From positions 1 through 35,293 of the forward strand of contig DASRJF010000079.1 of assembly GCA_035649615.1 (NCBI GenBank): 35,293 nt of DNA. Reading direction: 5' to 3'. The notes beneath the pieces are model-generated. The model ran no database searches. It was not told where the DNA came from and saw nothing but the letters and a program-made list of their open reading frames with translations. The stretch's first letter is position 1. Every line of letters begins with the position of its first letter. Shown piece after piece: positions 1,977 to 24,488 of the stretch. Position numbers and translations under genes: made by a program. Origin of the DNA: Planctomycetota bacterium (GTDB taxonomy: Bacteria > Planctomycetota > MHYJ01 > JACPRB01).

Positions 1977-2280
1977 GAGTTAGCGCGCCCCAATCCCAGA
2001 CAGTCTCCGGCCAGGCGCTCGTCTCTCCCCGGGCGGACCCTTACCGGCCGGATGAATTCAGAAGAAGTCTATCCTGCGGGGGGTCAAACGCAATAAAAAT
2101 ATGACTCTATTTGGGACAGGGGGGATTGGCCCGGGGGTTGCAGCGCAACCGCCTCAACCTCAAGGACTTAAAGTGAAAACGTGACCCTTGCCGCCGCCGT
2201 CGGGCGTGAAAATCTGCATTTCCGGGTGCGATTTCCTGGCGTTCGGGTGGGAATGCGACCGGATGAGGGCGAACGCGAAA

Positions 2281-6728: not shown

Positions 6729-7525
6729 GACGGGCTCGGCGGCGGGCTTCCCACCCAGTCGAGGTCTCCCCCCTGCGACACGGTCCGCCCGACCAGCGTG
6801 ACGAAGACGTCGTCCAGCGCCGCGGCGGGCCCGAGTCCCGCCTGGGCGCCCAATTCCGCCACGGTGCCGATGCCGCGGAGCCGGCCCTCGTGGATGACCG
6901 CGATCCGCGTGCAGAGCTTCTCCACCACTTCGAGCACGTGCGACGTGTAGAAGATCGTCAACCCCTTTGCGGTCAGTCCCTGGAGCACCTTCTGGATGAC
7001 CTGGGTCGAGATCGCGTCGATGCCGTTGAAGGGCTCGTCGAGGAAGAGCACCTCGGGCCCGTGGATCAGGGCGCAGGCGAGCGCCGCCTTCTTCCGCATT
7101 CCCAGCGAATAGTCGATGACGAGGCGCGCGCGGTCCGCGGGCTCCAGGTCCACGAGGTCGAGCAGCCGCCCGGCCCGCCGCTCCGCCTCCTCTTCCGCCA
7201 CGCCGTGCATGAGGCCGCTGAAGACGACGAGCTCCCAGCCGGTGAGGCGGTCGAACGTCTCGATCGTGTCGGGGAGGATGCCGATCCGCGCCTTGACCCC
7301 GAGCGGGTCCGCCGCGACATCGCGGCCGGCGACGAGGACCTGGCCCGACGTGGGCTTCATCAGGCCGCAGAGCATCTTGATCGTGGTCGTCTTCCCCGCG
7401 CCGTTCGGTCCGAGGAAGCCGAAGAACTCCCCGCGTCCGACCGTGAAGGAGACGCTGTCGACCGCGAGCTTCTCCTTGAATCGCTTGGTGAGATCGACGG
7501 CGGCGATGCGGGGGGCGTCGTTCAT
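6725..7525 (-). CDS. ABC transporter ATP-binding protein
   Basis: Walker A GPNGAGKTT. Signature-like YSLGMRKKAALACAL. Walker B VLFLDEPFNGID. H-loop YTSHVLE. The ATG overlaps the stop of the upstream kinase (ATGA at 7522-7525). Confidence 0.93.
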   Translation of the reverse strand: MNDAPRIAAVDLTKRFKEKLAVDSVSFTVGRGEFFGFLGPNGAGKTTTIKMLCGLMKPTSGQVLVAGRDVAADPLGVKARIGILPDTIETFDRLTGWELVVFSGLMHGVAEEEAERRAGRLLDLVDLEPADRARLVIDYSLGMRKKAALACALIHGPEVLFLDEPFNGIDAISTQVIQKVLQGLTAKGLTIFYTSHVLEVVEKLCTRIAVIHEGRLRGIGTVAELGAQAGLGPAAALDDVFVTLVGRTVSQGGDLDWVGSPPPSPS

Positions 7526-10500: not shown

Positions 10501-10947
10501 GAGGTCGAGGGCGTCCGCCTCCGGCAGCGGGCCCTGGCCCGATTTCACGCGGTCCTTGATGAGCCGGCCGGCGGTCTTGCCCGCCACGAACTCCATCACG
10601 AGATACCAGATCGCGGAGCCCGCCTTGGGGTCGCCGTCGACGTTGACGTCGAAGATGCGCACGAGGTTCGGGTGGTTCAATCGCGCGGCGACATTGGCTT
10701 CTCGCATGAAGTACTCGATCGCGTTGGGATCCTGGTCCGCGAGGTGGAAGGGCAGGATCTTCACGGCGACTTCGACGCCGAGCCGGGGGTGTTTCCCGAG
10801 ATAGACGGCGCCCATCCCGCCCTGCCCGAGCTTGCGGTACAGGGGGATTCCGCCCAGGGTCGGCCGTCCCGAGGGATCCCGGGGGGCGATGGCGAGCAGC
10901 CCGTCCTTGGCGAGATCCTTTTCGGACGCGTCGGGCATGGATTCCAT
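7522..10947 (-). CDS. Membrane Ser/Thr protein kinase STK1: Hanks kinase, one TM helix, TPR-like repeats, C-terminal beta-propeller-like domain
   Basis: GQGGMGAVYLG, VAVKIL, HRDIKPEN, DLG in place of DFG, GTPGYMAPEQ. TM helix APILIAVAAVLALVTAAGIGGIYLL. A long TPR-like helical region follows, then a Gly/Asp-rich beta-strand region at the C-terminus. An alternative start is the ATG at 10938. Confidence 0.9.
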   Translation of the reverse strand: MESMPDASEKDLAKDGLLAIAPRDPSGRPTLGGIPLYRKLGQGGMGAVYLGKHPRLGVEVAVKILPFHLADQDPNAIEYFMREANVAARLNHPNLVRIFDVNVDGDPKAGSAIWYLVMEFVAGKTAGRLIKDRVKSGQGPLPEADALDLLLTVSDGLAAAHEERFVHRDIKPENIIIPLSAEGEPQYRKAKLMDLGLAKVHSEDLSLGLTGTNVAMGTPGYMAPEQAENAKGAGPSADIFAMGATLYNLLTGAAPFTGTTVLNVLKKTSDEPHVPVRQINPSVSRPTDVLIDTCLAKRPEARYANAGILREGLKACRQSLGGESTTEFTLASLQNLASISAAEVTLRSDAASVLPSTPARPAVTSPSPPAPAAAASIPIPARKSKAPILIAVAAVLALVTAAGIGGIYLLQKLAQNSKGSPPAPPVVDTPGTEFAGIMKEAEAALADEDFAKAERLFKKARDLKPQSSEAQDGERRARELREQESSAAKAAGEADALVRNRNFQGAWDKLRAGIDLHPTAIILRLAAARLALDHGTYDMYALALNDVNQAIRLSGPKRKGEAISLRDKLDEKKKQADQAGGVLPQIQLAIDQGDWEAAEKLLERVDPAQRAGFSRSIEQGRKWQAALARGKQAEASQLWPEALAAYQEAYSLKADSATEALVRKAEEEVRSLYAAECDKAVEKARAGNFDEARKYLAEAEKLLPSGARHGKIRDENRFLEHLAEARRFKGDGKRAEALAAAQKALALRGDSAEARAIVDELKGPGSLGLAKAALAGGDRAAAVRHARAAAVENPGAPELKDLESDLWADLYVEKAAAAAKGPVDELSAAADGRVVGIGAGFGSFAVWGAEDLKLDSPPVKGGPKPFYAALIEKDGLRLAGLTGPAGIDGPETEQVAIWENGKSRHLHVETSGLKVPVTATRLAPFDGFLVLRVRLTPGDDRGGTDVYTLDVLDTEKSGAGNPTSDRGQAHGSIAVPPAGSYFATGGGTYRTWKREGNKSVVDERKNDTQVYLWARDTFAKRPVDLGEAVGDGALLSFTPDGAKLLVATLAKKLFVIDAAGGRVERSIPLPESPTGLSVSAAGAAVVAGRRVFLVRLGDARVAPATGFAAARSVLCAADGASVFVGGDDGLLRRYAYEPLAK

Positions 10948-11015: not shown

Positions 11016-14000
11016 TTGCCCATTGGGTATACTTGGTCGATGGAAGTGGGGAGCAAACCGCCGACGTCGGCCATCCACGGAGGAGCCACGGCTCCCGCCT
11101 CGCCCCCGGCCCGCGGGGGGGACGACCGGCTTCTCGGATCCCTGGCGGTCCGCGAGGGCTTCGTCTCCTCCCAGCAGGTCGAGGAGTGCGTGGCGCTCCA
11201 GAAATCGGCGGCGTCCCCCCGCAAGCTCGGCGAGATCCTCATCGAGAAGGGCTACATCACCGCGAAGCGGCTCATGGCCCTGCTGGACATCCAGAGCCGC
11301 CAGGTCCGGATCGTGGCGGCGGACCCGGCGCTCGGGGGGCTCTTCGGCCAGATCGCGCTCGACCTCGGCTTCGTGCCGGCGGACAAGATCGAGCAGGCCC
11401 TCCAGGAGCAGGCCTCGCTGTCGCGCACCGGGTCGCCCGCCATGCTGGGGCAGATCCTCCTGCGCAAGGGATGGCTCCAGACCGGGCAGTTCCTCGAGAT
11501 CCTCAAGGTCCAGCGGCGGACCATCCTGCGCTGCCCGGGCTGCGACACGTTTTACCGGTTCGAGGAGAAGGACCGCGGCTCGAAGTTCGCGTGCCGGCGC
11601 TGCGGGAACATCGTGCCGATCCCCGCGGCGGAGCCCGACGAACCGCGGGCCGGGGCGAGCCCGTCGGTCCCGGGGAAGCGCGCGGGAGAATCGGGGACCC
11701 AGTTCGGGCGGTACGCGATCCAGGAGGAGCTCGGCCGGGGAGGCATGGGGATCGTCTACAAGGCGCTGCACAAGGACCTGAACACCGTTTTCGCGCTCAA
11801 GATCCTGCGGGAGACGGAGATCTCGTCGGCGGAGGTCCTCGACCGGTTCAAGCGCGAGGCGCAGGCGGAGGCGCGGCTCCGCCACCCGAACATCGTCTCG
11901 ATCCACGATGCGGGCCAGGAGTCGGGCGTCCATTACCTCGCGATGGACTACATCGAGGGGGACCCGCTCACGACGCACCTCGCCCGGGGGTTCAAGATCC
12001 GCGACATGATCGCGCGCCTCGAGAAGGTCCTGCAGGCCGTCCACCACGCCCACGAGGAGGGGATCATCCACCGCGACCTCAAGCCCGCGAACATCATGAT
12101 CGACCTCGCGGGCGAGCCCCACGTCATGGATTTCGGGCTCGCCAAGTTCCTCGACGATCCGAAGCGCCTCATGCTGACGAAGGACGGGAGCTTCCTCGGC
12201 ACGCCCCATTACATGGCGCCGGAGCAGATCCGCGGCGAGGCGCGCCTCGTGGGCCCGCGCAGCGACATCTATTCGCTGGGGGTGATCCTCTACGAGATCC
12301 TGTGCGGCCGCACGCCCCACGTCGCGCCGAACAGCGTCGAGATCTTCCACAAGATCCTGACGGAGGAGCCGCCGCCGCCCCGGCTCTTCAACGCGCGCGT
12401 CCACCCCGACCTGCAGACGGTCTGCCTCAAGGCGATCGACAAGGACCCGGCGGTGCGGTACGCGACGGCCGGCGAGTTCGCGGACGACCTCCGGCGGTAT
12501 CTCGAGGGCGAGCCGATCCTGGCCCGGCCCCGGCCGTGGCCGATCCGCGCCCTCCGTCGCCTGCGGAAGAACAAGTCGACGGCCCTGGCCGCGATCTCGC
12601 TGTTCCTCTTCGCGATCTCCGGCGGCCTGGTCCTCTTCCTGATGTCGCGCGACGCGCGGGAGTTCGACCGGATCGCGAAGGAGGCGAAGGAGAGCTTCGA
12701 CGACCGGCAGTACGAGGAGGCCCTCCTGCACGCGCAGTCGGCGCTCCGCCTGCGGCCCGACGACAAGGCGATGGCCGAGTTCGTCGAGTGGGTCACGAAC
12801 CGGATCCGGACGCAGCGGGAGGAGTTCAGCAAGCGGCTCGTGCAGGACGAGAAGCGTCGGGAGGCCGAGCCCCGGATCGCCGCGGCGCGCATCATGCTGG
12901 AGATGATCCCGCGCCAGGCGGACCTCGACGGCGCGGGGGTCATGAAGCGGGCGGCGGAGGTCGAGAAGATCTTCGACGACGCGCTGAAGATCGTGACCGA
13001 CCACGAGGACGCGCTCCACGGGCGCGGCCGGGCCCGCATGCTGAAGGGGGACGCGGCCGGGGCGCTCGAGGATTTCGCGACGGTGTTGGAGAAGGCCCCG
13101 GGTCGCGTCGAGGCGCGCCAGGACGCGGCCCGCGTCCGGCTGTCGCTCGTGATCGAGGCGCGGCTGGTCGACCCGCGGCCCCCCGGCGTGCCTCCCGCCT
13201 CCGCCTTCGTGGAGGCCCGCAAGCGCGCGCACGCTGAATTTTCAGAGGTGTGGGCCAGCATGTCGCGCGACCCGGCGCGGGACGAATTCGCGCAGGCCGC
13301 GCTGCGGTGGCTCGATGGAAAGATCGCGGACGCGGCGGGCGGCCTGGACCGCTACGTCGGGTCGTACCCCGCGGATCCGGACGCGTGGCGGCTCCGCGCG
13401 ATGGCGCGGCTGGTCTCCGGGAATCCGGAGGGGGCGGAATCGGACCTGTCGATGGCGGCGCGGTATTCCCCGGGGGACGTCGTGACCCGGCTGGCGCGGG
13501 CGTGGGTTCGTCATGTCCGGGGGGACGCGGCCGGGGCCGACGCGGACCTCGCCGCGGTGGCGGCGCTGGCGCCGCAGAGTCCCGCGCGCGCGCTCCTGCG
13601 GGGCCGCATGCTGCTCGATCGGGGCGGGTTCCCGGCGGCGGCGGACGCGTTCGGCGCGGCGGCGGCCCTGGACCCCAAGTCACCCGGGGCGGCGCTGGGG
13701 ACCGGCTTGGCGCGCCTGCGGCGGGACGACCTGGAGGGTGCGCTGGCGCCGTTGCAGCGCGCGGCGGAGCTCGATGCCGCGGACGCCTGGCCGCTTCTGC
13801 TGCAGTCGGAGGTCCAGGAGCGACGGGGGCGCGCGCCGGAAGCGCTGGAGGCGTCGGAAGCGGCGGTCCGCCGGGCGCCGGACGCCGCGGTCGCGTACGA
13901 GCGGCGGGCGCGCGCGTGGGCGCGCCTGGAGAAGTTCCCCGAGGCGGTCAGGGACCTGGAGCGGGCCGTGAAGCTCGACCCCTCCTCCGCGGCGCGCCTG

Positions 14001-14048
14001 GACGCCGACCTGAAGGCGGCGCGGGCGCGGGTCTCCGGTCGGCCCTGA
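11016..14048 (+). CDS. Membrane Ser/Thr protein kinase STK2: two MshEN/T2SSE_N-like modules, zinc ribbon, Hanks kinase, TM helix, periplasmic TPR repeats
   Basis: The track start at 11016 is TTG. ATG 11040 is more likely because TATACT lies 6 nt upstream. Kinase motifs are GRGGMGIVYKA, FALKIL, HRDLKPAN, DFGLAK and GTPHYMAPEQ. The zinc ribbon is CPGC-x16-CRRC. The TM helix is ALAAISLFLFAISGGLVLFLM. The C-terminus has many TPR-like repeats. Confidence 0.9.
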   Translation: MPIGYTWSMEVGSKPPTSAIHGGATAPASPPARGGDDRLLGSLAVREGFVSSQQVEECVALQKSAASPRKLGEILIEKGYITAKRLMALLDIQSRQVRIVAADPALGGLFGQIALDLGFVPADKIEQALQEQASLSRTGSPAMLGQILLRKGWLQTGQFLEILKVQRRTILRCPGCDTFYRFEEKDRGSKFACRRCGNIVPIPAAEPDEPRAGASPSVPGKRAGESGTQFGRYAIQEELGRGGMGIVYKALHKDLNTVFALKILRETEISSAEVLDRFKREAQAEARLRHPNIVSIHDAGQESGVHYLAMDYIEGDPLTTHLARGFKIRDMIARLEKVLQAVHHAHEEGIIHRDLKPANIMIDLAGEPHVMDFGLAKFLDDPKRLMLTKDGSFLGTPHYMAPEQIRGEARLVGPRSDIYSLGVILYEILCGRTPHVAPNSVEIFHKILTEEPPPPRLFNARVHPDLQTVCLKAIDKDPAVRYATAGEFADDLRRYLEGEPILARPRPWPIRALRRLRKNKSTALAAISLFLFAISGGLVLFLMSRDAREFDRIAKEAKESFDDRQYEEALLHAQSALRLRPDDKAMAEFVEWVTNRIRTQREEFSKRLVQDEKRREAEPRIAAARIMLEMIPRQADLDGAGVMKRAAEVEKIFDDALKIVTDHEDALHGRGRARMLKGDAAGALEDFATVLEKAPGRVEARQDAARVRLSLVIEARLVDPRPPGVPPASAFVEARKRAHAEFSEVWASMSRDPARDEFAQAALRWLDGKIADAAGGLDRYVGSYPADPDAWRLRAMARLVSGNPEGAESDLSMAARYSPGDVVTRLARAWVRHVRGDAAGADADLAAVAALAPQSPARALLRGRMLLDRGGFPAAADAFGAAAALDPKSPGAALGTGLARLRRDDLEGALAPLQRAAELDAADAWPLLLQSEVQERRGRAPEALEASEAAVRRAPDAAVAYERRARAWARLEKFPEAVRDLERAVKLDPSSAARLDADLKAARARVSGRP
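11028..11033 (+). promoter_or_regulatory. -10 box candidate for STK2 (leaderless geometry)
   Basis: TATACT with exactly 6 nt before ATG 11040, so the predicted +1 is the A of the ATG. Confidence 0.35.
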
Positions 14049-14150: not shown

Positions 14151-17100
14151 CTAGAACTTCTTGTGGATGCGGGTGATGTCGCGGATCCGCGGGTCGCTGA
14201 CCGCCTGCGACACCGCTTCCTCGGCCTGGCGGGTTCCCTGCGCCGCCAGCGCGAGGACCGCCGCGGCGCGCGTCTCCTCCCCGAAGCCCTTCACGAGGCC
14301 GAAGAACCGGGGGCGCGTCTGCGCGATCTTCGTCAGGAGCGGCACCACGGCCGCGTTCGGGACCTGGCGGAAGTACGCCGAGCACAGGATCATGAGCGCC
14401 TCGTCCTGCGCCCCCTCGAGGATCTTCCCCACCTCGGCCTTCACCGCCTCGATCTTCATCTGCGCGGCCGCCTCGAGCCCCGAGTCCCTCAACTCCCTCG
14501 AGGAGTTCGCCAGCAGGCGGCGGATGATCCCCGCCACGACCGAGCGGGGCCAGTGCTCGGCCGACTTGAGAATGATCCCCCTCAGGTCCGGGCTGCCGTG
14601 CTCGGCCAGCATCGCCAGGTGCCCCGCGATCGGCGCCGTCAGGAGCGGTTCGATGACCTGCAGCACCCGCACCGTGCGCTCGATCGGGCCGTCCGGCGGG
14701 ATCAGGCGCATGATCTCCACCGCCAGCCGTTCCGCCGACGCGGACAGGGAGAGCGCGATCGCCCGGCGGATCCGCACGTCGGGCTCCTCCGCCAGGATGT
14801 CCACGAGCTTCTCCACGGTCGGGCCCCCGACCGCGAGGAGGATCGTGATGGCCGCGTTGCGGTCGTCCTCCGAGGGCTTCCTCACGGCCGCGCAGATCGC
14901 GTCGAACGCCATCGACTGCGGGATCAGAAGGAGCGCCGCCTCGCACACCGCCGCGACCTCGGGCGGCGTGACGGGGGAATCCGCCCGGCGCCGGAGCGTC
15001 CGGCCCGCGATCTCCGCCAGCTCCCCGAGGCATCCGGACGCCGCCGCCGCGGGGATCCAGACCGGAAGCAGGTTCACCGCGGCGCGCACGTGGAGCGGCT
15101 CCGTGTCCTCCGACAGTCTCATCTTGAGCGACGCGGCCGACCGCATGACCGCGAGCTTGCGCGTCCCCGGCGAGGCGAACGCGATCGACCGCGTCAGGAG
15201 GTTGAACGCCCGCGTCCGGTGCGAGAGGCTCGGATGGTGGAAGTGGGTTCCCAGCCGGTCCACGAGCTGCTCCGCGACGGGCCGTCCCGCGCCGTACGCG
15301 AGGGCCTCCACCAGGAGCGGGAACTGCCGCTCGAGGTCGGGCGTGAGGAACTCCTCGTTCGAGCGCGCCAGGTGCTCCCGCGCCCGGATCTCCGACCGCA
15401 CCGGCTTGGGCGGAGGGTGCAGCGGCATCTCCAGGTCGTCGGTCGCCCGCTCGTAGACGCGCGCGCCGAACGCGACGTGGCTGAATTGCGTGAAGAGCCG
15501 GTCCCCCGTGCCGGGCTGCATCGCCTCCTCCGGCGACAGCGAGAAGTAGCTGATGAGGGCCCGGATCTCGTCCTCCATCAGGCCCCGCCCGATGAGCACG
15601 CTCTTGATCTTGCGGTGGTCGATCTCCTTCGTCAGCCAGGCGCCCGCGTCGCTGAAGAACTTCGCGTCCGCCGGATGACCGTTGAGCACCAGTTCGGCGT
15701 CGGCCGTTCCCCACGCCACGGCCGGCACCTTGCGCAGGAGTTCCATGAAGGCGCGGACGCACTGGGCCGTCGTTTCTTCCACGAGCGTGTGGCCCGGCGG
15801 GTAGCGCTTCAGGTTGTCGACGCCCGCTTTGAGATACCGCATCGCGTCCCGCACCGCCGGCAGGTCGTCGGCGGGCACGGGCTTGTCCGCCGCTTCCAGG
15901 CGCACCCGGCGCATCGTTTCCCGGGCCTGGTACGCCTTCTGGACGATGTCGACCGCCTCCATGGCCTCGCGCGCCAGGAACCGCTCCCAGAAGTCGGGCG
16001 CCGCGCGCGCCCGGTCGAACGGCTCCGTGAAGTTCCGGACGATCGTCTCGATCCGCGGGGTCTCGAACGGGGGAAGAATGGTGATCGATTCAACGAGACG
16101 GTCGTCGAGGAGCCGTCCGAAATCCGCCGCGACCGGATTGTCGGTCTGGACGCCGTTGATCGCCGGCCCGTTCGTCGTGACGGAGAAGGTCAGCCCGGGG
16201 CCCCCGATCAGGAGCGCCTCGAGCGACCCGCGAAGCTGCGCGAGGAACGTGGTGCCGACCTGGCTCCACTGCGGATAGAGGCGCCCGATCTTCACCGCGG
16301 CCATGAAATGGCGCATCAGGGCCAGGCTTTGTTCGGTGGCCGACGCCGCCAGGTTCGTGGTCACCGCCGGAAGGCGGGGTCTCCGGGATCCCGCCTTGGC
16401 GGGCGGCTGGATGAGCGTCGCGCGCTTCTGGGCCACCTCGTCGAACTTCCGCGCCTTCGCCTCCCGGCCGGCCCGGTTGTAGTGGAACGCGATCTCGTCC
16501 GCGATGTGGTCGATGTCGCCGCCGTGGCGCGCCTCCTGCACGACGCCGACGCGGTCGTGGATCTCCTTCCGCTCCGTCGCGTCCGACGTCTGCAGCCGGA
16601 CGCGCCGCGCGTGGGCCGCCGGGAAGGAGAGGAGGTCCTGCCCCGACTCGGAGGGGACCAGCAGGCGGGTCCGCCGGACCTCGTCGATGAGGTCCAGCAT
16701 TTCCGTGTCGCCCTCGCCGAGGACTTCCTGCAGCAGCTCGGGATCGAACCGCGTGCCGATCACGGCCGCGCGCGTGAGCAGGCTGTTCGCGCCGGTCGGC
16801 AGCGCCTCGGCGACGGCGCGGATGGCGCCCGCGAGATCGCGCGAGAGGTCGGACGGCAGGAGCTCCGGCAGCGACCACCGGCCCGCCGACTGCTTCATCC
16901 GGCCGCGCAGCAGGAGGGAGCGGACGGTCTCCTCGAGGTAGAGCGGGTTGCCCTGCGACGCCACGATGAGCCGCGCCACCGATTCGTTGCTGATTTCCGC
17001 GTCGGGCAGGATGCCGCGGATCATCTGGCGCAGGTCCTCGGCAGGCAGGGGCAGCAGGTTGAGGCGCGCCGCGCCGGGCGCGAAGTCCCGCCAGAAGGCG

Positions 17101-18215
17101 CCCGAGGGCGTCATCTCCATTTCCGTCGACGGCCGGGCCGACCCGACGGCCACCAGGATCGGCAGCTTCCGGTTGATCGCCGCCCGGTACACCTCGAACG
17201 TGGCGCCGTCGGCGAATTCCACCTCGTCGATCAGCGCCAGCAGGGGGCCGATCCGCGACAGCTCATCGAAGAGCGCCCCGAAAGCCTCGAAGACCAGGCG
17301 GCCCGCGTTGCCGGGCGGCACCTGCTCCGCGGACCACTCCGGCGGAAGATCCCGCAGGACGATCGCCAGGGCCGCCCGATGCGGGGGGCTGATCCGCTCC
17401 ATGGCCTTGAGGACCATGGGGCGGTCATAGGCCATCAGCGTCTCGATTTGCTCCGCGAGCGTCGAATACGGAGCGGTGGAGCGCGACTCCTGGCTCGTGG
17501 CCGTCAGGAGGACGAACTTCTCGATCCGCGACCAGACGCCCAGCTCGTGCAGGAGCCGCGACTTGCCGACGCCGGAAGCGCCGGTGACGATCGCGACCGA
17601 CGGTCCGACGTTGCGGACGTCGCTCGCGAGCTGCCGCATGCGCGACTGCTCCCCGACCCGGCCCACGAGGATCGGGCACGGAAGTCCGCGGAAGATGCCG
17701 ATCTCCGCGAGCGCCACCGGGTCGAGCCGCCCCGCGACCGCGATCTTGTTGTGGCCCTGGTGCTTGGCGACCAGGAGCGCTCTCTCCGAAGCCTCGATCA
17801 CGGCGGCCGGGGACTTGCCGTCCATCGGATAGCTCGCCACCGACGCGCTGGCCGTCAGCGTGACCTGCCGGCCGCCTGCCGTGAAGGGCTTGTGGTCGAC
17901 CGCGCCCCGCAGTTTCTCCGCGGTGGCGGCTCCCTTGTCGCGGTCGGCGTCGGGAACGAGCAGGCAGAACGAGTCGCCGCCGTAGCGGAACAGGAGCGCC
18001 CCGTCGCCGGCGGCTTCCTTCAGGCGGGCCGCGACCTCCCGGAGCAGGGCGTCCAGCTTCGGGCGGTCGAGGCCCTCGGTCGTGGCGTTGAAGGCGTCGA
18101 GGTCGACCAGGACGAGCGCGCCCGCGTGGGCGGGCATCCGCTCGCGAAGGGCGGATAGAAGGCCCCGGCGGTTGCCGAGCCCGGTCGCGAGATCCTGATG
18201 TGAAGGGTCGACCAT
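14151..18215 (-). CDS. Degenerate GGDEF domain, P-loop (AAA_16/STAND-like) NTPase and long helical/HEAT-repeat region, 1354 aa
   Basis: The N-terminus reads DLATGLGNRRGL..LVLVDLDAFN..RYGGDSF (17967-17981). Walker A is GASGVGKS (17559-17582) and Walker B is LLALIDEVEFAD. The C-terminal third has HEAT-like repeats, e.g. EEPDVRIRRAIALSL, GSPDLRGIILKSA and DPRIRDITRI. Confidence 0.8.
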   Translation of the reverse strand: MVDPSHQDLATGLGNRRGLLSALRERMPAHAGALVLVDLDAFNATTEGLDRPKLDALLREVAARLKEAAGDGALLFRYGGDSFCLLVPDADRDKGAATAEKLRGAVDHKPFTAGGRQVTLTASASVASYPMDGKSPAAVIEASERALLVAKHQGHNKIAVAGRLDPVALAEIGIFRGLPCPILVGRVGEQSRMRQLASDVRNVGPSVAIVTGASGVGKSRLLHELGVWSRIEKFVLLTATSQESRSTAPYSTLAEQIETLMAYDRPMVLKAMERISPPHRAALAIVLRDLPPEWSAEQVPPGNAGRLVFEAFGALFDELSRIGPLLALIDEVEFADGATFEVYRAAINRKLPILVAVGSARPSTEMEMTPSGAFWRDFAPGAARLNLLPLPAEDLRQMIRGILPDAEISNESVARLIVASQGNPLYLEETVRSLLLRGRMKQSAGRWSLPELLPSDLSRDLAGAIRAVAEALPTGANSLLTRAAVIGTRFDPELLQEVLGEGDTEMLDLIDEVRRTRLLVPSESGQDLLSFPAAHARRVRLQTSDATERKEIHDRVGVVQEARHGGDIDHIADEIAFHYNRAGREAKARKFDEVAQKRATLIQPPAKAGSRRPRLPAVTTNLAASATEQSLALMRHFMAAVKIGRLYPQWSQVGTTFLAQLRGSLEALLIGGPGLTFSVTTNGPAINGVQTDNPVAADFGRLLDDRLVESITILPPFETPRIETIVRNFTEPFDRARAAPDFWERFLAREAMEAVDIVQKAYQARETMRRVRLEAADKPVPADDLPAVRDAMRYLKAGVDNLKRYPPGHTLVEETTAQCVRAFMELLRKVPAVAWGTADAELVLNGHPADAKFFSDAGAWLTKEIDHRKIKSVLIGRGLMEDEIRALISYFSLSPEEAMQPGTGDRLFTQFSHVAFGARVYERATDDLEMPLHPPPKPVRSEIRAREHLARSNEEFLTPDLERQFPLLVEALAYGAGRPVAEQLVDRLGTHFHHPSLSHRTRAFNLLTRSIAFASPGTRKLAVMRSAASLKMRLSEDTEPLHVRAAVNLLPVWIPAAAASGCLGELAEIAGRTLRRRADSPVTPPEVAAVCEAALLLIPQSMAFDAICAAVRKPSEDDRNAAITILLAVGGPTVEKLVDILAEEPDVRIRRAIALSLSASAERLAVEIMRLIPPDGPIERTVRVLQVIEPLLTAPIAGHLAMLAEHGSPDLRGIILKSAEHWPRSVVAGIIRRLLANSSRELRDSGLEAAAQMKIEAVKAEVGKILEGAQDEALMILCSAYFRQVPNAAVVPLLTKIAQTRPRFFGLVKGFGEETRAAAVLALAAQGTRQAEEAVSQAVSDPRIRDITRIHKKF

Positions 18216-18319: not shown

Positions 18320-20350
18320 TCAATTCCCCTCGTTGAGCTGGTGCAGGTACTCCGACGCCTGGCCTTCGAACTGGGTCCCCTTGAGCTCCCGAAGCAGGTC
18401 CCGGGCCATGGCCGGATAGTTCGCGGACATGGCGTACAGCGCGAGCGCGAACTTGTTCCCCGGCGAATCGAGCAGGGGAGGGAGCTTGTCGGTGCGGGTC
18501 AGGGCCATTTCGCGGATCCCCGTCGGCCCGAACTTGGACCACGGAGCGAAGTCCGACGGCTGCTGCCCGATGACGTAGATGACGCCGTCCGTCTGGGCCT
18601 TCGTGAGCGTCACATTCTTCGCCTGCGTCGTCCCGATCGTCAGCTTCAACAGGTACGGATTCGTCGCCAGGATGCGATCGATGAGCTGCTGCTTGAACAT
18701 CGCGATGTGCTCCCGGCGGCGCAGGATCTCGCTGAACTCGGGCCGCTTCAGCACGTCCGGGCCGAGCGAATCGACCAGGTCGGGACGGAATTCCTCCAGG
18801 TGTTTCATCGCCTTGTCCGTGGAGGTGCCGCTTTCGAACCAGCTCCGGATCCTCGACTGGAAGATGAACGTGGCCGAGGCCGCGATCAGCATCAGGAAGA
18901 CCACGAGCAGGATCGGGACCCACCGGCCCTTGCGCGATCCCAGCGACTCGGCGATGTCCTGCATCCCCGCCGGGAGCGTATTGACGGACGCCATCTTCGG
19001 AAGCGACCGCTTGCCTCCCCCCGAGACGTTGGCCAGCTCCTCGGCGAACGCGAGCGCGTTCTGGGGACGCTTCTGCGGATCCTTGGACAGGGACCGCATG
19101 CACAGCGCCTCCAATTCCGGGGGGACGACGAGCATCCGGCGCGAGGAGGCCGCCGCCGAGTCCCGGCCCCAGGCCAGCTCGCTCGGCGCCTTCGGTTTCT
19201 CATCCTGGACGCGCTTGAGGACGTCCATCACCTCGCCGACGAACGGCGGCTGCCCCGCCAGCATCTCGTAGAGGATCGACCCCAGGCCGTACACGTCGGT
19301 GCGCGGATCGAGCAGGTCGTTGCGCCCCGCCGCCTGCTCCGGCGCCATGTACGACGGCGTCCCGCTCACCACGCCCTGCTCGACCTTGATCTCGCCGAGC
19401 TGGCGGGCGAGGCCGAAGTCCAGGATGCAGGCGCGTCCCTCGCCCGTGACCATGATGTTCGCGGGCTTCAGGTCGCAATGGAGCAGCGGCGCCGGCCGCG
19501 TGTGCGCATAGTGGAGCGCCTGCGCCGTCTCGTAGAGGACGCCGATCCACTTCCGCGGATTCTCGTGGAAGGGCGAGACCTTGCCGGCCTTCTTGCACTC
19601 CTGGATCTCGTCGAGCATCGTCCGGCCGTCGAGGAACTCCATGCTGATGTAGTACTCGTCCTCGACCCGGCCGATGTCGTAGATCGACACGATGTTCGGA
19701 TGGCGGAGCTTGATCGCGTTGTGGGCCTCGTTGAGGAGGCTCGCGACCCGCGTGTGGCGGACCGCCTTGCCCGAGCCCTGCGGCGGAGGCTTGATCCGCT
19801 TGAGCGCCACGAGCTGGTTCAGGTAGACGTCCCACGCGCGGTAGATCGCGCCGATGCCCCCGCGCCCGATCTCGCCCAGGATGACGTACTTGCCGAACCG
19901 CTTGGAGGGATCCTTGCGCGCCTCGATGACATCGGGCGGGACCGGCGCGCTGCTGGCGACGATGATCATCGAGTCGATGCTGTCGTCCGGGCGGTCCGGC
20001 GACGGCTCGATGAGAATCGTCTCGCACTTCCCGCACTTGTAGCCGATGGCGTCCGGCCGCAAGTTGACCGTCACCATGATGTTGCAGCGCGTGCAGAGGA
20101 GGACCTTCTTGTTCTGCTCCGCGAGGGCGTCGCGGATGGCCTCCTTGGTCGTGTAGCCCTTCTGGAGCAGCAATTCGCCGATGCGCGGGACCACCGCCTG
20201 GCCCTGCATCGACTGCTGGATCTTCAGGCATTCGTCGAGGTGGACCACGGTGACGGACCCCATCCGGAGCAGGATCTGCCCCATGTCCGCCCGCGGAGGC
20301 GCGGACAGGGCGGGAGACGTCACCGGGCCGGGCGGAGGGGGAATAGCCAT
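18320..20350 (-). CDS. Membrane Ser/Thr protein kinase STK3: one MshEN/T2SSE_N-like module, zinc ribbon, non-RD Hanks kinase, TM helix, uncharacterised extracytoplasmic domain
   Basis: Track ORF 18320..20548. The real start is probably ATG 20350 (MAIPPPPGPV), because upstream of it the ORF is Arg/Cys-rich shadow. Motifs are GRGGIGAIYRA, VALKRI, HCDLKPAN (non-RD), DFGLAR and GTPSYMAPEQ. The zinc ribbon is CTRC-x16-CGKC. The TM helix is WVPILLVVFLMLIAASATFIF. Confidence 0.9.
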   Translation of the reverse strand: MAIPPPPGPVTSPALSAPPRADMGQILLRMGSVTVVHLDECLKIQQSMQGQAVVPRIGELLLQKGYTTKEAIRDALAEQNKKVLLCTRCNIMVTVNLRPDAIGYKCGKCETILIEPSPDRPDDSIDSMIIVASSAPVPPDVIEARKDPSKRFGKYVILGEIGRGGIGAIYRAWDVYLNQLVALKRIKPPPQGSGKAVRHTRVASLLNEAHNAIKLRHPNIVSIYDIGRVEDEYYISMEFLDGRTMLDEIQECKKAGKVSPFHENPRKWIGVLYETAQALHYAHTRPAPLLHCDLKPANIMVTGEGRACILDFGLARQLGEIKVEQGVVSGTPSYMAPEQAAGRNDLLDPRTDVYGLGSILYEMLAGQPPFVGEVMDVLKRVQDEKPKAPSELAWGRDSAAASSRRMLVVPPELEALCMRSLSKDPQKRPQNALAFAEELANVSGGGKRSLPKMASVNTLPAGMQDIAESLGSRKGRWVPILLVVFLMLIAASATFIFQSRIRSWFESGTSTDKAMKHLEEFRPDLVDSLGPDVLKRPEFSEILRRREHIAMFKQQLIDRILATNPYLLKLTIGTTQAKNVTLTKAQTDGVIYVIGQQPSDFAPWSKFGPTGIREMALTRTDKLPPLLDSPGNKFALALYAMSANYPAMARDLLRELKGTQFEGQASEYLHQLNEGN

Positions 20351-20426: not shown

Positions 20427-21962
20427 CTACGGCGGCGCCCCGGCCAGGTCCGCAGGCAGGTGGGCCAGCCCGATCCGGGAGCCCCCGGCCGCCGCGAGCA
20501 GGCGTTCCACGACCACGCGCAGCTCCCGCACGTTGCCCGGCCAGGCATGGGATTCCAGGCGGCGCCGGACCTCGGGGTCGAGATGATCGTCGAGCGAACC
20601 GACGCCGCGGCCGCCGAGCGTCCTCAGGAAATGATGGAGGAGCGCCGGCAGATCGCCCATCCGATCGCGCAGCGGGGGCAGCGCGACCACGTCGCCGAAC
20701 CGGCGGTCGAAGCCCTGTCCGCTGGAGGCGCCCGCCAGGACCCGAACGTCCTCCTCCACCGACGGCTCTTCCACGAGGACGAGGAGCCGCTCGCGGATCG
20801 GTTCCGCCATCGTGTCGAGGCCGTCGACATACAGGGTGCCGCCGCGCGCCTCGGCGACGCGACCCCCGGCCCCGAACAAGGCCGCCTCGAGGAGGCCGGG
20901 CGCGACGGCCGCGCCGCGGACCGACACGAACGGTCCCACGGCGCGGGGTCCGAGGGTGTGAAGCCGCCGGGCCGCCCGCTCCTTCCCCGTGCCGGGCTCG
21001 CCCGTGAACAGGACCGGCGTGTCCGACGAGGCCGCGCGCTCGATGCTCGCGATGGCGGCGGACAGGGCGCCCGAGGTCACCAGCTCGCATCCCTCCGCCA
21101 GGCGTCCGGCGGCCGCGGCCACCGCCTCGCGGGCCCGCCGCATCCGGCGCGCGGTGGCGATCGCCCCGGCGCCGAAGGACGCGATCCACGCCGCGTAGCG
21201 AAGGTCGGCGCGCGTGAAGGCCGGCGGCGGGGCGTCGAGGTAGACGAACCCCAGCATGTCCCGGCCCGCCGCGAGGGGCGTCGCCAGCACCTCGACGGGC
21301 CGGCCCGACCACGTCCCTCCCCGCGCCGCGTCCGACGCGAGCACCGACTTGCGCTCCTTCCACACCTTGTGGAAGAGCACGTTCGAAAGCTGGATCTCGT
21401 CGTCCCCCGGGGGAGCGCGCCGCGCCGCGGGCTGGAGGCGGCCTCCTTCTGAAGCCAGCATGACAAAGCCCCGGCGCGCCTTCAGATCCGTCACCAGGCG
21501 GTCGAGGAGCATCCGGACCGCCGTGTCTTCCGGCTCCGCCCCGTGGAACGCGCGCGCGGCGTCGAGCGTGGAGGCCGTCCGCGCGGCATCGAGCGCCTCG
21601 TCGAACGGATCCTCGAGCGTTTCGGTGACGAGCGTCGCCCCGCCGGGCCGCGAGCGGGGCGAGCTGTCGCGCTCGGCCGTGGGATCGAAGACGAGCAGGT
21701 GCTCGCCGATCTCGATCTCGTCGTCGCGCGAGAGGTCCTTTTCGGCGACCTTCTGCCCGTTCACGAAGATCCCGTTGCGGCTCCCCGCATCCTGGATGGC
21801 GAACCCTGCGGAACGGCGCACGAATCGTGCGTGCACGCGGGAGATGTGGTTGCCTTCGATGCGGACGGCGCAAGAGACCGCACGGCCGACGGTGCTTCCG
21901 TCGTCGATTTCGAACGTCCGGCCGCGCAGCGGGCCTTCGACGGCGACGAGTCGGGTCGTCAT
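20427..21962 (-). CDS. FHA, GAF-like and sigma-54-interaction-type AAA+ protein with no DNA-binding domain
   Basis: Start at ATG 21962 (MTTRLVAVEGPLRGRTFEI), which overlaps the upstream stop (ATGA at 21959-21962). FHA motifs are GRAVSCAVRI..ISRVHARF..DAGSRNGIFVNG. AAA+ motifs are VLFTGEPGTGKE, GGTLYVDGLD and WPGNVRELR. The protein ends about 30 aa after the sensor-II region. Confidence 0.85.
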   Translation of the reverse strand: MTTRLVAVEGPLRGRTFEIDDGSTVGRAVSCAVRIEGNHISRVHARFVRRSAGFAIQDAGSRNGIFVNGQKVAEKDLSRDDEIEIGEHLLVFDPTAERDSSPRSRPGGATLVTETLEDPFDEALDAARTASTLDAARAFHGAEPEDTAVRMLLDRLVTDLKARRGFVMLASEGGRLQPAARRAPPGDDEIQLSNVLFHKVWKERKSVLASDAARGGTWSGRPVEVLATPLAAGRDMLGFVYLDAPPPAFTRADLRYAAWIASFGAGAIATARRMRRAREAVAAAAGRLAEGCELVTSGALSAAIASIERAASSDTPVLFTGEPGTGKERAARRLHTLGPRAVGPFVSVRGAAVAPGLLEAALFGAGGRVAEARGGTLYVDGLDTMAEPIRERLLVLVEEPSVEEDVRVLAGASSGQGFDRRFGDVVALPPLRDRMGDLPALLHHFLRTLGGRGVGSLDDHLDPEVRRRLESHAWPGNVRELRVVVERLLAAAGGSRIGLAHLPADLAGAPP

Positions 21963-23854
21963 CTCGTGATTTTCAACGTCTTCTTCATCCGTTCCAGCGC
22001 GGGCCGGCAGGCGTCCTCGTCCCCCTTCAGGACGACCTCGAGCACCTCGCCGGGGCCCAGGCGCACGTACCACCGGCTGTCGGTCTCGTAAGTCTCGCGC
22101 CCCTCCAGCGTCCCCAATTCTCCTGACGACGAGGCGCCCAGCTTCCGTGCGGCCTTTCGGGTGTCGAGCTTGACGAGCTCGTACGGCAGGTCGATGTAGC
22201 TCACGATCGCCCGGTTGTCCGGGTCGGCCGATCCGATCACGGCGAGCGTGAACGGCGGGAGATCCTTCGCGTCGCGGAACGTCCAGCCCTCGGGCTTCTC
22301 GAATGCGACGCCGAGGAGCGGCGCCTCGAAACGGTTCCCCTCCGCCGCCGGCGGCGGCGCCACTTTCGTGGCGCGGCCCTCGATCGTGTAGTCGAGGATC
22401 TCGATCTTCATGGCGCCGTGCATGAACCCCGCGCCCCGCATTCCCTCGAGCGTCGAGCCGGAATCTTCCGCGTCCGTCTCGCTGAACTTGAGGCGGGCCG
22501 CGTCGGCGACGCTCCCGCCGAGCGTCGCGTCAAAGTCCACCCACCGCCCCAGCCAGGCGCTCGTCCACGCGTGGCCTCCCCAGGCGCCGCGGTAATAGAG
22601 GTACCCGCAGCACACCTTCGCGGGGATTCCCGCCGCGCGGAACATGGCCGCCAGGAGGACCGCGTGCTCGGTGCAGTCCCCGGTCCGGTTCGTGTAGACC
22701 TCGCGGGCGCTCGCCGCCCCGATGTCCATGCTCTTCTTGTCGATGTGGTTGTGCACCCACGCGGCGAGGCGGCCGGCCACGAGGGCGGGGTCCTTCTCGT
22801 CTCCGGCGATTTTCCGGGCCTCCGCCGCGATCTCCGCGTCATCGCATTGAACGGCCGGCGACGGCTTGAGGAAGATCGCCAGGTCCGGACCCGGCGTTCC
22901 GGTCGTGGGCTGACTCGACTCCACGCGCAGGGTCACGGATCGCGCGCTCCGGTTGACCACCGACTGGGTCCCGGCCGGGGCTTTCCATTCCGCGAAGACC
23001 TCGTCGGGCCGCGTCATCTGGACGGTGAGGGCCGTGATCTCGCGGGGACGGGGAAGCGCGACGTTCGACCGCGGCATGGTTCCGAAGAAGACCTCGGGCA
23101 TCTCGGCGCCGGTGTTCTTCAGCGCCTCCTCCCGGGTCGCGGGCTCCATGACGATCTTGATCCCCATCATGTTGGTTTCCATCGCGACGGAGGACGCCTT
23201 GTCGTCCATCCAGGAGGTGATGGCGATGCCCGGTTGAAGCGACGTCTTCGTGAGGACGCGGACGAGCTCCTGTTCGCGGCCCTGGAAAGTCTTCTTCTCG
23301 CGGCCTTCCACGAGAATGGAGATCTCGTCGGGCTTCCCCAGTTCCGCGTTGAAGCTCTTGAGCGTGTAGGCGGTTCCCTTCGCGAATCCCTTCTTGAGCG
23401 TGGCAAGCCGCATTCCCTCGGACAGGATCCACTCGGGGTCCCAGGCGATCTCGGATTCGCGGGTCGCGCCTCCGGTCGTGGTCGACAGCTTGAGCCGGCC
23501 GTCCTTGATGACTCCCTCGTTCACGGTCGGGGACGACGACATCACCATGCGCGACGTGAAGCGCAGCGGCCGGCCGTCGGGAGTTTCGACATGCCGCGTG
23601 TCCGTCGTGACCTCGATGCCGGTGCCCATGCGCTTCAGGACCATGCGGGACTTGACTTGCGTTTCGACCTCGTCGGGGCGGCACGTCCGCGTGCCGTGGA
23701 CGTAACCGACGCGCACGGCGCGCTCTCCCACCACCGACATGATTCCCCAGCTCTCCTCGACCTGGACCTCGGGCTTCGGCGGCGCGAGGGGGGCCGGCAC
23801 GTGGCTGTCGCACGCCGAGGCGAGGAGAAGAAGGAGGGCGACGGCGGCGCGCAT
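21959..23854 (-). CDS. Transglutaminase-like (Cys-His-Asp) lipoprotein
   Basis: Start at ATG 23854 (MRAAVALLLLLASAC, lipobox-like ASAC), with GGGAG 7 nt upstream. The core is TGDCTEHAVLLAAMFRAAGIPAKVCCGY..GGHAWTSAWL..WVDFDAT. Confidence 0.85.
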   Translation of the reverse strand: MRAAVALLLLLASACDSHVPAPLAPPKPEVQVEESWGIMSVVGERAVRVGYVHGTRTCRPDEVETQVKSRMVLKRMGTGIEVTTDTRHVETPDGRPLRFTSRMVMSSSPTVNEGVIKDGRLKLSTTTGGATRESEIAWDPEWILSEGMRLATLKKGFAKGTAYTLKSFNAELGKPDEISILVEGREKKTFQGREQELVRVLTKTSLQPGIAITSWMDDKASSVAMETNMMGIKIVMEPATREEALKNTGAEMPEVFFGTMPRSNVALPRPREITALTVQMTRPDEVFAEWKAPAGTQSVVNRSARSVTLRVESSQPTTGTPGPDLAIFLKPSPAVQCDDAEIAAEARKIAGDEKDPALVAGRLAAWVHNHIDKKSMDIGAASAREVYTNRTGDCTEHAVLLAAMFRAAGIPAKVCCGYLYYRGAWGGHAWTSAWLGRWVDFDATLGGSVADAARLKFSETDAEDSGSTLEGMRGAGFMHGAMKIEILDYTIEGRATKVAPPPAAEGNRFEAPLLGVAFEKPEGWTFRDAKDLPPFTLAVIGSADPDNRAIVSYIDLPYELVKLDTRKAARKLGASSSGELGTLEGRETYETDSRWYVRLGPGEVLEVVLKGDEDACRPALERMKKTLKITR

Positions 23855-24019
23855 CGGTTGGCTCCCGGGAACGGATGACAGGGAACGAGCTACCCCTGCT
23901 TGAAGTCGGCCCAATGGGTCAGAGTATATACGACGCCGGCCGGGACACTTCCGTCCGTGCCGGGACAGACTCCAAGACTGGGCGTCCCTGAAGTGTGAGA
24001 ACGGGGAGCCGGGGAACTT

Positions 24020-24358
24020 CTAACGCCGGGAACTGAAGCAGTCGCTGCAGTACACGGGCCGGTCGCCGCGCGGCTTGAAAGGGACCTGCGTCTGCTTGCC
24101 GCACTGGGCGCACACGGCGGGGAACATTTCCCGCGGTCCCCCGCGTCCGCCGCCCATGCCGCCGCCGCCGCCCCCGCCGCCGCCCCCGCCGCGCCCGCCC
24201 CCGCCGCCGCCGGTCGCCGCCTTCTTCGCCGCCCGGCAGGGGGCGCACCGCTTGGGCTCATTCGTGAACCCGAGCTGGGCATGCCGCTCCTGCTCCGCCG
24301 CGGTGAACGTGAACGCCGCTCCGCACTCCACGCACGTCAACTGCTTGTCCGTGTACAT
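24020..24358 (-). CDS. Small double zinc-ribbon protein (CxxC..CxxC twice) with a Gly/Arg-rich linker
   Basis: Start at ATG 24358 (MYTDKQLTCVECGAAFTFTAAEQE). The Cys pairs are CVEC..CAPC and CAQC..CSDC. The linker GGGGGGRGGGGGGGGGGGMGGGRGG is encoded at 24137-24211. Confidence 0.75.
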   Translation of the reverse strand: MYTDKQLTCVECGAAFTFTAAEQERHAQLGFTNEPKRCAPCRAAKKAATGGGGGGRGGGGGGGGGGGMGGGRGGPREMFPAVCAQCGKQTQVPFKPRGDRPVYCSDCFSSRR

Positions 24359-24488
24359 TCCCGGCCCCGCTGTTGTGACTACTGCAACCTGTGCTCGGCG
24401 CACCCTGCGTCGAGGGGGGAATTATCCCACCTTTGTTCCGGCCAAAGCCAATAAAAAAATTTGATCGCGCCGGGGGGAGCTCCCGAGG

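Follow-up and report, generated by a model that had tools for sequence, protein, structure and literature searches.

Among the described systems closest to the locus studied here is V. cholerae MshE, whose MshEN_N subdomain is a four-helix bundle formed by two tandem 24-residue motifs of the type (R)hGxxhhxxGhhxxxxhxxxhxxQ (5HTL; Wang et al. 2016, PMC5013675). Gly3 and Gln24 are the motif positions that make polar contacts to cyclic di-GMP (c-di-GMP) in MshE (PMC5013675): the backbone amides of Gly3 bind guanine, substitutions of G11 and G40 abolish binding, and Gln24 hydrogen-bonds ribose and phosphate. The isolated subdomain (residues 1-62) is sufficient to bind the second messenger, with a dissociation constant of 0.35 µM, and changes of Arg9 shift the affinity less than five-fold, so that the base-stacking residue at position 1 is not strictly required. 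A second set of relatives is provided by the GSPII domains of the T. thermophilus protein PilF (8PDK, 8PFA, 6F8L; Neissner et al. 2024, PMC11731258). GSPII-B and GSPII-C demonstrate that an Arg at position 1 is not needed and that the two motifs can be separated by more than five residues (seven in GSPII-C by alignment reading); the Geobacter PilB spacer likewise comprises seven residues. GSPII-B, whose position 1 residues are Lys and Leu, binds c-di-GMP at 6 nM. Here we describe a composite module, built of an MshEN_N-type motif pair and a putative zinc ribbon, at the N-terminus of STK3, a Ser/Thr kinase encoded on a stretch of 35,293 nucleotides (the window) from a Planctomycetota bacterium (assembly GCA_035649615.1, contig DASRJF010000079.1). 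We refer to this module as the cassette; a second copy is present in the window on the paralogous kinase STK2.

A link between MshEN domains and protein kinases has been noted before. Wang et al. (2016) reported that MshEN co-occurs with Ser/Thr kinases, with Pkinase-MshEN-UNK-REC from Myxococcales as the sole listed architecture, and regarded this fusion as a hint of c-di-GMP input to protein phosphorylation (PMC5013675). Like STK3, Stigmatella aurantiaca PKN11 (Supplementary Table 4, PMC5013675) combines a Ser/Thr kinase with an MshEN-type domain in a single protein; unlike STK3, its kinase is N-terminal, its MshEN domain is complete with the C-subdomain, a ribbon is missing and the output is a REC domain, and the protein, known bioinformatically, belongs to another phylum. 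Proteins of the (MshEN_N)2 type that lack T2SSE_N1 (Cyanothece cce_1044; (MshEN_N)2-CheX and (MshEN_N)2-REC-ACyc; PMC5013675) resemble STK2 and STK3 in using the bundle as a portable unit, and they resemble STK2 in that MshEN_N is often tandem-duplicated and fused to varied outputs. However, the listed (MshEN_N)2 architectures are without a ribbon, and none of them is positioned at the N-terminus of a membrane-bound Hanks kinase (PMC5013675).

The STK3 cassette and its relation to MshEN-type domains

The STK3 gene and the parts of its product are as follows:

18320..20350, minus strand: STK3 coding sequence, 676 amino acids plus stop, from the open reading frame listing and its translation
20216..20287, minus strand: MshEN-type motif 1, DMGQILLRMGSVTVVHLDECLKIQ, residues 22-45
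20186..20215, minus strand: spacer between the motifs, 10 residues, residues 46-55
20114..20185, minus strand: MshEN-type motif 2, RIGELLLQKGYTTKEAIRDALAEQ, residues 56-79
20024..20095, minus strand: putative zinc ribbon CTRC-x16-CGKC, residues 86-109, 6 residues past Gln24 of motif 2
19061..19888, minus strand: Hanks-type Ser/Thr kinase domain, non-RD, residues 155-430 (Pfam Pkinase, E 4.5e-42, 144.7 bits)
18860..18922, minus strand: single predicted transmembrane helix, residues 477-497, the sole Kyte-Doolittle window above 1.6
18323..18856, minus strand: C-terminal domain of about 180 amino acids, presumed periplasmic, without family assignment

The reading frame has a third-position guanine-plus-cytosine content of 0.93, and the ATG start codon at 20350 is backed by the starts of orthologous proteins (MTIPPPP and MTFPPPP). 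From the N-terminus, STK3 comprises the putative sensor cassette, a Hanks kinase that starts about 45 residues beyond the ribbon, one transmembrane helix and the unassigned C-terminal domain. We located the full set of catalytic motifs in the kinase (G-loop GRGGIG, VALK, HCDLKPAN, DFG and APE), and in the catalytic loop HCDLKPAN (residues 291-298) a Cys precedes the catalytic Asp, which makes the enzyme non-RD, as the original prediction for this locus had stated. Judged by its sequence, STK3 is hence a bitopic receptor Ser/Thr kinase of the non-RD type with complete catalytic motifs. The suggestion that its C-terminal domain lacks recognisable relatives also held: Pfam and NCBIfam returned zero matches, a sequence search yielded orthologue fragments only, and a profile run against the sequences in the PDB found only designed helical repeats. 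The domain, which is specific to the lineage, is nevertheless kept in P0052, an orthologue of 45% identity.

The original prediction had placed a motif pair, a 10-residue spacer and a Cys pattern at positions 20024-20287; translation places them there to the base, and the interval corresponds exactly to residues 22-109 of STK3. We compared the pair with the consensus for two tandem 24-residue motifs, (R/K/L)LGxx(L/V/I)(L/V/I)xxG(L/V/I)(L/V/I)xxxxLxxxLxxQ. Motif 2 fits it fully, keeping Arg1, Gly3, Gly10, Leu21 and Gln24, when Ile is accepted in place of Leu at positions 2 and 17. Motif 1 keeps Gly3, Gly10, Leu17, Leu21 and Gln24 and departs from the consensus at three positions, with Asp at position 1 (not R/K/L), Met at position 2 and Ser at position 11. 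Gly3 (G24 and G58) and Gln24 (Q45 and Q79) are thus present in both motifs. At the base-stacking position 1, Arg56 of motif 2, which had been pointed out in the initial annotation, agrees with the consensus, and Asp22 of motif 1 does not. The spacer of 10 residues lies outside the range of 5-7 residues seen in MshE, PilF GSPII-C and Geobacter PilB.

Sequence comparisons connect the STK3 N-terminus firmly to solved structures. Against the sequences of PDB structures, its best match was T. thermophilus PilF (E 3.3e-8), and the isolated c-di-GMP-binding GSPII-B domain was matched at E 1.8e-5; the best local match of motif 2, RIGELLLQKGYTTKEAIRDALAEQ, was the GSPII-B segment KLGELLLQKGWISREALEEALVEQ. 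The NCBIfam model NF053729 ('c-di-GMP_motif, MshE-related'; 53 positions, cutoff 38 bits) aligned residues 23-79 of STK3 with profile positions 2-53 of 53 (E 2.3e-8, 33.7 bits). While this score is about 4 bits below the curated cutoff, the STK3 orthologues (40.9, 43.6 and 44.0 bits), STK2 (55.6 bits) and other members of the family described below (53-73 bits) all exceed it. A profile made from A5, a 48-sequence alignment of the cassette that we also used for structure prediction, strengthened the matches to the sequences of solved structures further (PilF 6.1e-14, Geobacter PilB 6.6e-8, MshE 5htl 1.3e-6).

Prediction with AlphaFold2 (AF2) from the single sequence of STK3 residues 1-151 gave a mean predicted local distance difference test (pLDDT) score of only 42.7. 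When run on A5, AF2 returned a model with a mean pLDDT of 85.3, in which four helices (construct positions 5-15, 21-33, 43-50 and 55-65) are followed by beta-hairpins and the four-helix bundle closes despite the 10-residue spacer. The highest-probability Foldseek match of this model in the PDB was MshE with c-di-GMP (5htl_A; probability 0.94, root-mean-square deviation 1.8 Å over 56 columns, E 1.0), and the other top matches were zinc ribbons. Sequence, profile and predicted fold agree in assigning the STK3 helices to the MshEN_N type, which bears out the MshEN-like nature that had been proposed for them.

Could amphipathic helices that resemble MshEN_N by chance, next to cysteines whose spacing is coincidental, have produced this picture? 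Two observations lend themselves to such an explanation: the Pfam matches on family members are uninformative, consisting only of partial DUF4388 and spurious FumaraseC_C hits, and no Foldseek match of the cassette model to the PDB reached E<=1e-3, all E-values being about 1. Pfam PF05157 (MshEN), too, had no match to STK3 or STK2 at E<=0.1; since Pfam assigns family members only partial or spurious matches, we do not count it as evidence against homology. A chance resemblance is refuted by the matches to solved MshEN-type domains and to the curated NCBIfam model, with E-values between 1e-8 and 1e-14, by thousands of homologues that share the spacings and by the confident four-helix model; we consider it extremely improbable. 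The similarity of the cassette to MshEN-type domains, as read from these sequence comparisons, is real homology.

The comparison with MshE and PilF also brings out how STK3 differs from them. With MshE, STK3 shares Gly3 and Gln24 in both motifs and the predicted fold; it differs in having a spacer of 10 residues, where MshE has five, in a motif 1 that begins with Asp, and in its output, which is a Hanks kinase and not an ATPase of type II secretion or type IV pilus systems. Moreover, the MshEN_C / T2SSE_N1 subdomain is missing from STK3, and the CxxC-x16-CxxC ribbon follows six residues on instead. The PilF domains, which STK3 matches best in sequence, possess an additional C-terminal subdomain that adds affinity and have no ribbon directly after the bundle, and their position 1 is occupied by K, L, R or P, never by Asp.

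The ribbon itself resembles the MJ0042-type / Zn_ribbon_4 ribbons (PF13717; the N-terminal ribbon of Myxococcus AgmX, 7ZOK), which are short beta-hairpins with a four-Cys CxxC...CxxC pattern, and profile matches to these are weak. The ribbon part of the A5 profile matched the AgmX zinc ribbon (7zok) at E 5.9e-4. With Pfam Zn_ribbon_4, STK3 gave no match, STK2 scored 19.3 bits against a threshold of 30.3, and nine of 67 family members reached E<=1e-3. The cassette ribbon is set apart from this family by scores under the Pfam gathering threshold and by its fusion, at a fixed distance of six residues, to an MshEN_N bundle.

Distribution and conservation of the cassette

A word-indexed homologue search with the STK3 N-terminus returned one 80%-identical fragment only, and an exhaustive profile search was needed to reveal the family. 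We searched 1.84 billion cluster representatives with HMMER, using a cassette profile built from three sequences, and obtained 3,599 matches at E<=1e-3, 924 at E<=1e-10 and 18 at E<=1e-30. Among the best 150 of the 3,599 matches, 122 have the four-Cys pattern and 45 a kinase domain; in about 40% of the long cassette members, a Hanks kinase is found 25-50 residues downstream. The full pattern of motif pair plus ribbon fits 113 of these 150 sequences, and the following counts of positions and spacings are taken among them.

The geometry of the cassette is close to constant. In 112 of the 113 members, a linker of six residues separates Gln24 from the first Cys; 99 of 112 have x16 as the inner Cys spacing, and 77 of 113 share the 10-residue spacer. 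These 10/6/16 spacings being the family norm, the 'identical spacing' of the ribbons in STK2 and STK3 that had attracted attention to the locus is a family constant. Gly3 is kept in 112/113 (motif 1) and 111/113 (motif 2) of the members and Gln24 in 104/113 and 110/113, respectively, and the four ribbon cysteines are invariant in A5; the Gly3 and Gln24 positions of both motifs and the four cysteines are the most conserved columns of the family. At position 1, Leu is present in most members; Asp at position 1 of motif 1 occurs in just 3/113. An extra motif pair upstream (the layout of STK2) occurs in 106/113 members and is missing in seven (the layout of STK3). Two motif pairs are hence the family norm, and STK3 represents a rare single-pair lineage.

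Where a kinase is present (39 cases among the 113), it is always located downstream of the cassette, usually 25-50 residues past the ribbon. Other fusion partners are TPR arrays and Hpt/HATPase_c, and the cassette also exists as stand-alone proteins of 170-198 amino acids (two pairs plus ribbon) that are encoded on contigs of up to 60 kb. These stand-alone members (P0158-P0213; P0158, for instance, lies on a 60.7-kb contig) are mostly unnamed or 'hypothetical', and some are labelled 'DUF1610 Zn-ribbon'. All named kinase members derive from metagenome-assembled genomes (MAGs) of Planctomycetota, with labels that read merely 'protein kinase' or 'TPR repeat protein', and one stand-alone member is labelled Acidobacteria. 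The cassette is thus not special to the STK2/STK3 locus; it behaves as a portable input module.

In the A5 columns past the ribbon, many members have a short acidic/hydrophobic patch 10-20 residues after the last Cys, e.g., ...V(D/E)xxx. The STK3 orthologues carry D(S/T)x(V/I)IVxSxxPVPxEV instead, immediately ahead of the kinase. This may represent a linker element, conserved for the coupling of cassette and kinase.

The cassette of STK2 is organised as follows:

11016-14048, plus strand: STK2 gene
11130..11603, plus strand: STK2 cassette (NF053729, 55.6 bits)
11130-11294, plus strand: motif pair 1, with a 7-residue spacer
11340-11513, plus strand: motif pair 2, with a 10-residue spacer, then a 6-residue linker
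11532-11603, plus strand: ribbon CPGC-x16-CRRC

Past the cassette, STK2 continues with an RD kinase, a transmembrane helix and TPR repeats. Its N-terminus matches PilF at 1.7e-6 and V. cholerae MshE (5htl) at 2.5e-4. The N-termini of STK2 and STK3 align at E 7e-11 over 101 residues, far above background and with the zinc ribbon included. The shared Cys spacing pointed out earlier (CTRC-x16-CGKC in STK3, CPGC-x16-CRRC in STK2) is likewise confirmed. The claim that both genes carry the same tripartite N-terminus stands as far as the association of cassette and kinase is concerned; it fails in one detail, since STK2 has two motif pairs and not one. Comparison of the whole proteins gives a colinear alignment that spans cassette and kinase, with 31% identity over 425 residues. 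A recent tandem duplication was ruled out by the low identity (26% in the module, 31% overall), and we regard STK2 and STK3, on this sequence comparison, as old paralogues. The recurrence of the arrangement on two neighbouring genes had been taken to mean that its parts work as a unit and were not fused by chance. We reach the same conclusion on a stronger ground, namely the rigidly conserved pair-x6-CxxC-x16-CxxC module that occurs in thousands of proteins and in a stand-alone form of about 175 amino acids.

Is c-di-GMP the ligand of the STK3 cassette?

From homology and conservation, we infer that STK3 binds c-di-GMP, an outcome that we rate a little above even; for canonical members such as STK2, binding is likelier than for STK3. 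What the sequences and the model establish is the homology, the domain architecture, the predicted fold, the retention of the ligand-contacting positions and the wide occurrence of the cassette; the effect of binding on the kinase, the direction of this regulation and the substrates are, like binding itself, inferred. All residues that are critical for binding in MshE (the equivalents of G11 and G40) are present in STK3, and the marks of the non-binder XpsE (G11V, L29R, R38G, G40L, L54H, L58C and Q61V) have no counterpart in it, except at the position of I19, where STK3 has Ser. On balance, sequence and model incline us to view STK3 as a bitopic non-RD receptor kinase whose cassette is a module for c-di-GMP input.

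Several features weigh against this interpretation. Motif 1 of STK3 has Asp at position 1, where validated binders carry R, K, L or P; two further deviations are its Met at position 2 and its Ser at position 11, which belongs to the core. PilF GSPII-A, whose motifs are near the consensus, does not bind, its helix 1 being extended and stabilised by an N-cap; by analogy, the Asp that directly precedes the STK3 helix could act like this N-cap. The spacer of 10 residues compares with 5-7 in the characterised domains and is twice as long as that of MshE. The STK3 copy falls short of the NF053729 cutoff, Pfam PF05157 and Foldseek gave the negative results described above, and the sole nearby GGDEF protein is degenerate, so that the locus supplies no source of c-di-GMP. 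Finally, c-di-GMP hardly alters the enzyme activity of MshE in vitro, which makes an allosteric effect on the kinase speculative.

Some of these features can be read as the outcome of a loss. The cassette, although derived from MshEN_N, would then have given up c-di-GMP binding in the STK3 lineage and would serve as a structural, dimerisation or docking module (e.g., to the GGDEF-STAND protein encoded next to STK3), with the ribbon as an interaction surface. This would account for an Asp at position 1 of motif 1 that is conserved in STK3 orthologues down to 45% identity yet occurs in only three of 113 family members, for the score under the NF053729 cutoff, and for the disappearance from the STK3 lineage of the first motif pair that 106/113 members possess; PilF GSPII-A and XpsE provide precedents for non-binders that are near the consensus. 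However, the binding-critical Gly3 and Gln24 are kept in both motifs of STK3, and the retention of Gln24 for structure alone is unexpected since this residue contacts the ligand and not the core. Changes of Arg9 move the affinity of MshE less than five-fold, and the STK3 orthologues exceed the NCBIfam cutoff. We therefore hold a loss of binding to be doubtful, if a serious contender.

The same Asp, together with the 10-residue spacer, might instead have retuned the bundle to another nucleotide or small ligand, e.g., another cyclic dinucleotide. An acidic residue at the base-stacking position is specific to the STK3 lineage, and the 10-residue spacer and the fixed fusion to the ribbon separate the subfamily from every characterised MshEN domain. 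Positive support is lacking for such a ligand, though, and all polar contact positions match those that serve c-di-GMP; moreover, the Leu found at position 1 in most members is linked in PilF to very tight c-di-GMP binding. A change of ligand is accordingly improbable.

Under the c-di-GMP reading that we favour, the helical bundle of STK3 would bind one molecule of c-di-GMP in the manner of MshE and PilF. The Gly3 backbone amides of each motif would contact the Hoogsteen edges of the guanines, the Gln24 side chains would contact ribose and phosphate, and the hydrophobic positions 2, 17 and 21 would pack on the bases. Occupancy by c-di-GMP could then shift the kinase output via the short linker or through altered self-association, and STK3 would merge an intracellular second-messenger signal with a periplasmic one. 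Non-RD kinases are unlikely to rely on activation-loop phosphorylation; it is therefore reasonable to suppose that STK3 is controlled from its N-terminus, by an allosteric switch or by one that acts through oligomerisation. Likely downstream partners would be the FHA-domain AAA+ protein encoded by the upstream gene and the degenerate-GGDEF STAND protein encoded by the downstream gene.

Gene neighbourhood and implications for planctomycete kinases

The two genes flanking STK3 are the following:

14151..18215, minus strand: GGDEF-AAA_16 (STAND-type NTPase)-HEAT gene directly downstream of STK3, 1,354 amino acids (Pfam)
20427..22073, minus strand: FHA-GAF-AAA+ gene directly upstream of STK3 (Pfam FHA, GAF and, in part, Sigma54_activat)

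STK3 orthologues of 76% and 74% identity are present in two genomes, both of them Planctomycetota MAGs, and more distant ones are P0052 (45% over the full length) and P0118 (53%); those of 76%, 74% and 45% identity are colinear with STK3 over their full length. Both P0052 and P0118 keep the single motif pair, the Asp at position 1 of motif 1, the ribbon and a non-RD loop (HCD or HLD). The gene order of the window recurs at the locus L001: transglutaminase-like, FHA-GAF-AAA+, STK3, degenerate GGDEF-AAA_16-HEAT and a convergent STK2. On the short contig L003, the GGDEF gene begins immediately behind the stop codon of P0052, without an intervening base.

The GGDEF domain is N-terminal in the product of 14151-18215, and its signature is degenerate (GGDSF); the neighbours in the other loci read GGDAF (L001, 12038-16099) and AADAF (L003, 2105-2581). 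An RxxD I-site was not seen in the GGDEF neighbour. We judge from these sequences that the GGDEF-STAND protein is probably catalytically dead. We had considered this gene as a local source of c-di-GMP, and the GGDSF, GGDAF and AADAF signatures, with no RxxD seen, rule it out. The STK3 kinase thus appears, from the sequences compared, to be consistently paired with a degenerate GGDEF-STAND protein that would be its partner or target and not a source of c-di-GMP.

The FHA-GAF-AAA+ gene holds the same position in L001, and not in L004. Inspected by eye, its product lacks the GAFTGA loop (it reads ALFGAGGRVAEARGGTLYVDGLD) and has VDGLD for the Walker B DE; it stops at the AAA lid and has no helix-turn-helix domain. 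Judging by its sequence features, this protein is probably not a true sigma-54 activator despite the resemblance, and it may be a candidate phospho-threonine reader for the adjacent kinase STK3. A protein with a transglutaminase-like core (651 amino acids; 21959-23914, minus strand) heads the same-strand string transglutaminase / FHA-AAA+ / STK3 / GGDEF-STAND.

A six-frame motif scan of the window placed the motifs and the associated Cys pattern in STK2 and STK3 only, and a third copy of the cassette was not found. Two further Ser/Thr kinases are encoded in the window, making four in 35 kb, and both are without the cassette:

7522-10947, minus strand: Pkinase+TPR kinase without an N-terminal cassette
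3-1979, minus strand: Pkinase+AAA_16 kinase that runs off the window edge

The gene at 24020-24403 (minus strand) encodes a 127-amino-acid protein with the treble-clef zinc fingers zf_Tbcl and zf_Tbcl_2 and a long Gly-rich linker, GGGGGGRGGGGGGGGGGGMGGGRGG.

Our literature searches turned up no account of a cassette that joins bundle and ribbon at the N-terminus, of its 10/6/16 geometry or of how common it is among planctomycete kinases, nor any experimentally characterised action of c-di-GMP directly on a Hanks-type Ser/Thr kinase, and nothing of this kind for Planctomycetota. A 2024 survey of planctomycete kinases does not mention the cassette; it relied on Pfam, which does not detect it. 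Fusions of MshEN with kinases were already noted in 2016; the cassette arrangement was not, as far as these searches reach.

Receptors for c-di-GMP are well mapped for motility, secretion and transcription. The Planctomycetota, in turn, encode very large sets of Ser/Thr kinases, and for few of these is the input known. We tentatively propose, at less than even confidence, that the cassette marks a large, unannotated class of c-di-GMP-gated Hanks-type receptor kinases in this phylum, with stand-alone and histidine-kinase-linked forms, in which the messenger would directly switch Ser/Thr phosphorylation; among these switches would be STK2 and STK3, which would differ in their periplasmic inputs and be connected to the FHA-AAA+ and the degenerate-GGDEF STAND proteins. 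Should the cassette not bind c-di-GMP, the family would still represent an unannotated and sharply defined domain that merits a profile model of its own. If it does bind, the fixed geometry of bundle and ribbon would offer a compact construct of about 90 residues for biochemistry, and a sizeable share of the planctomycete kinases would gain a defined cytoplasmic input. Through this predicted sensor, c-di-GMP may directly control Ser/Thr phosphorylation in Planctomycetota.

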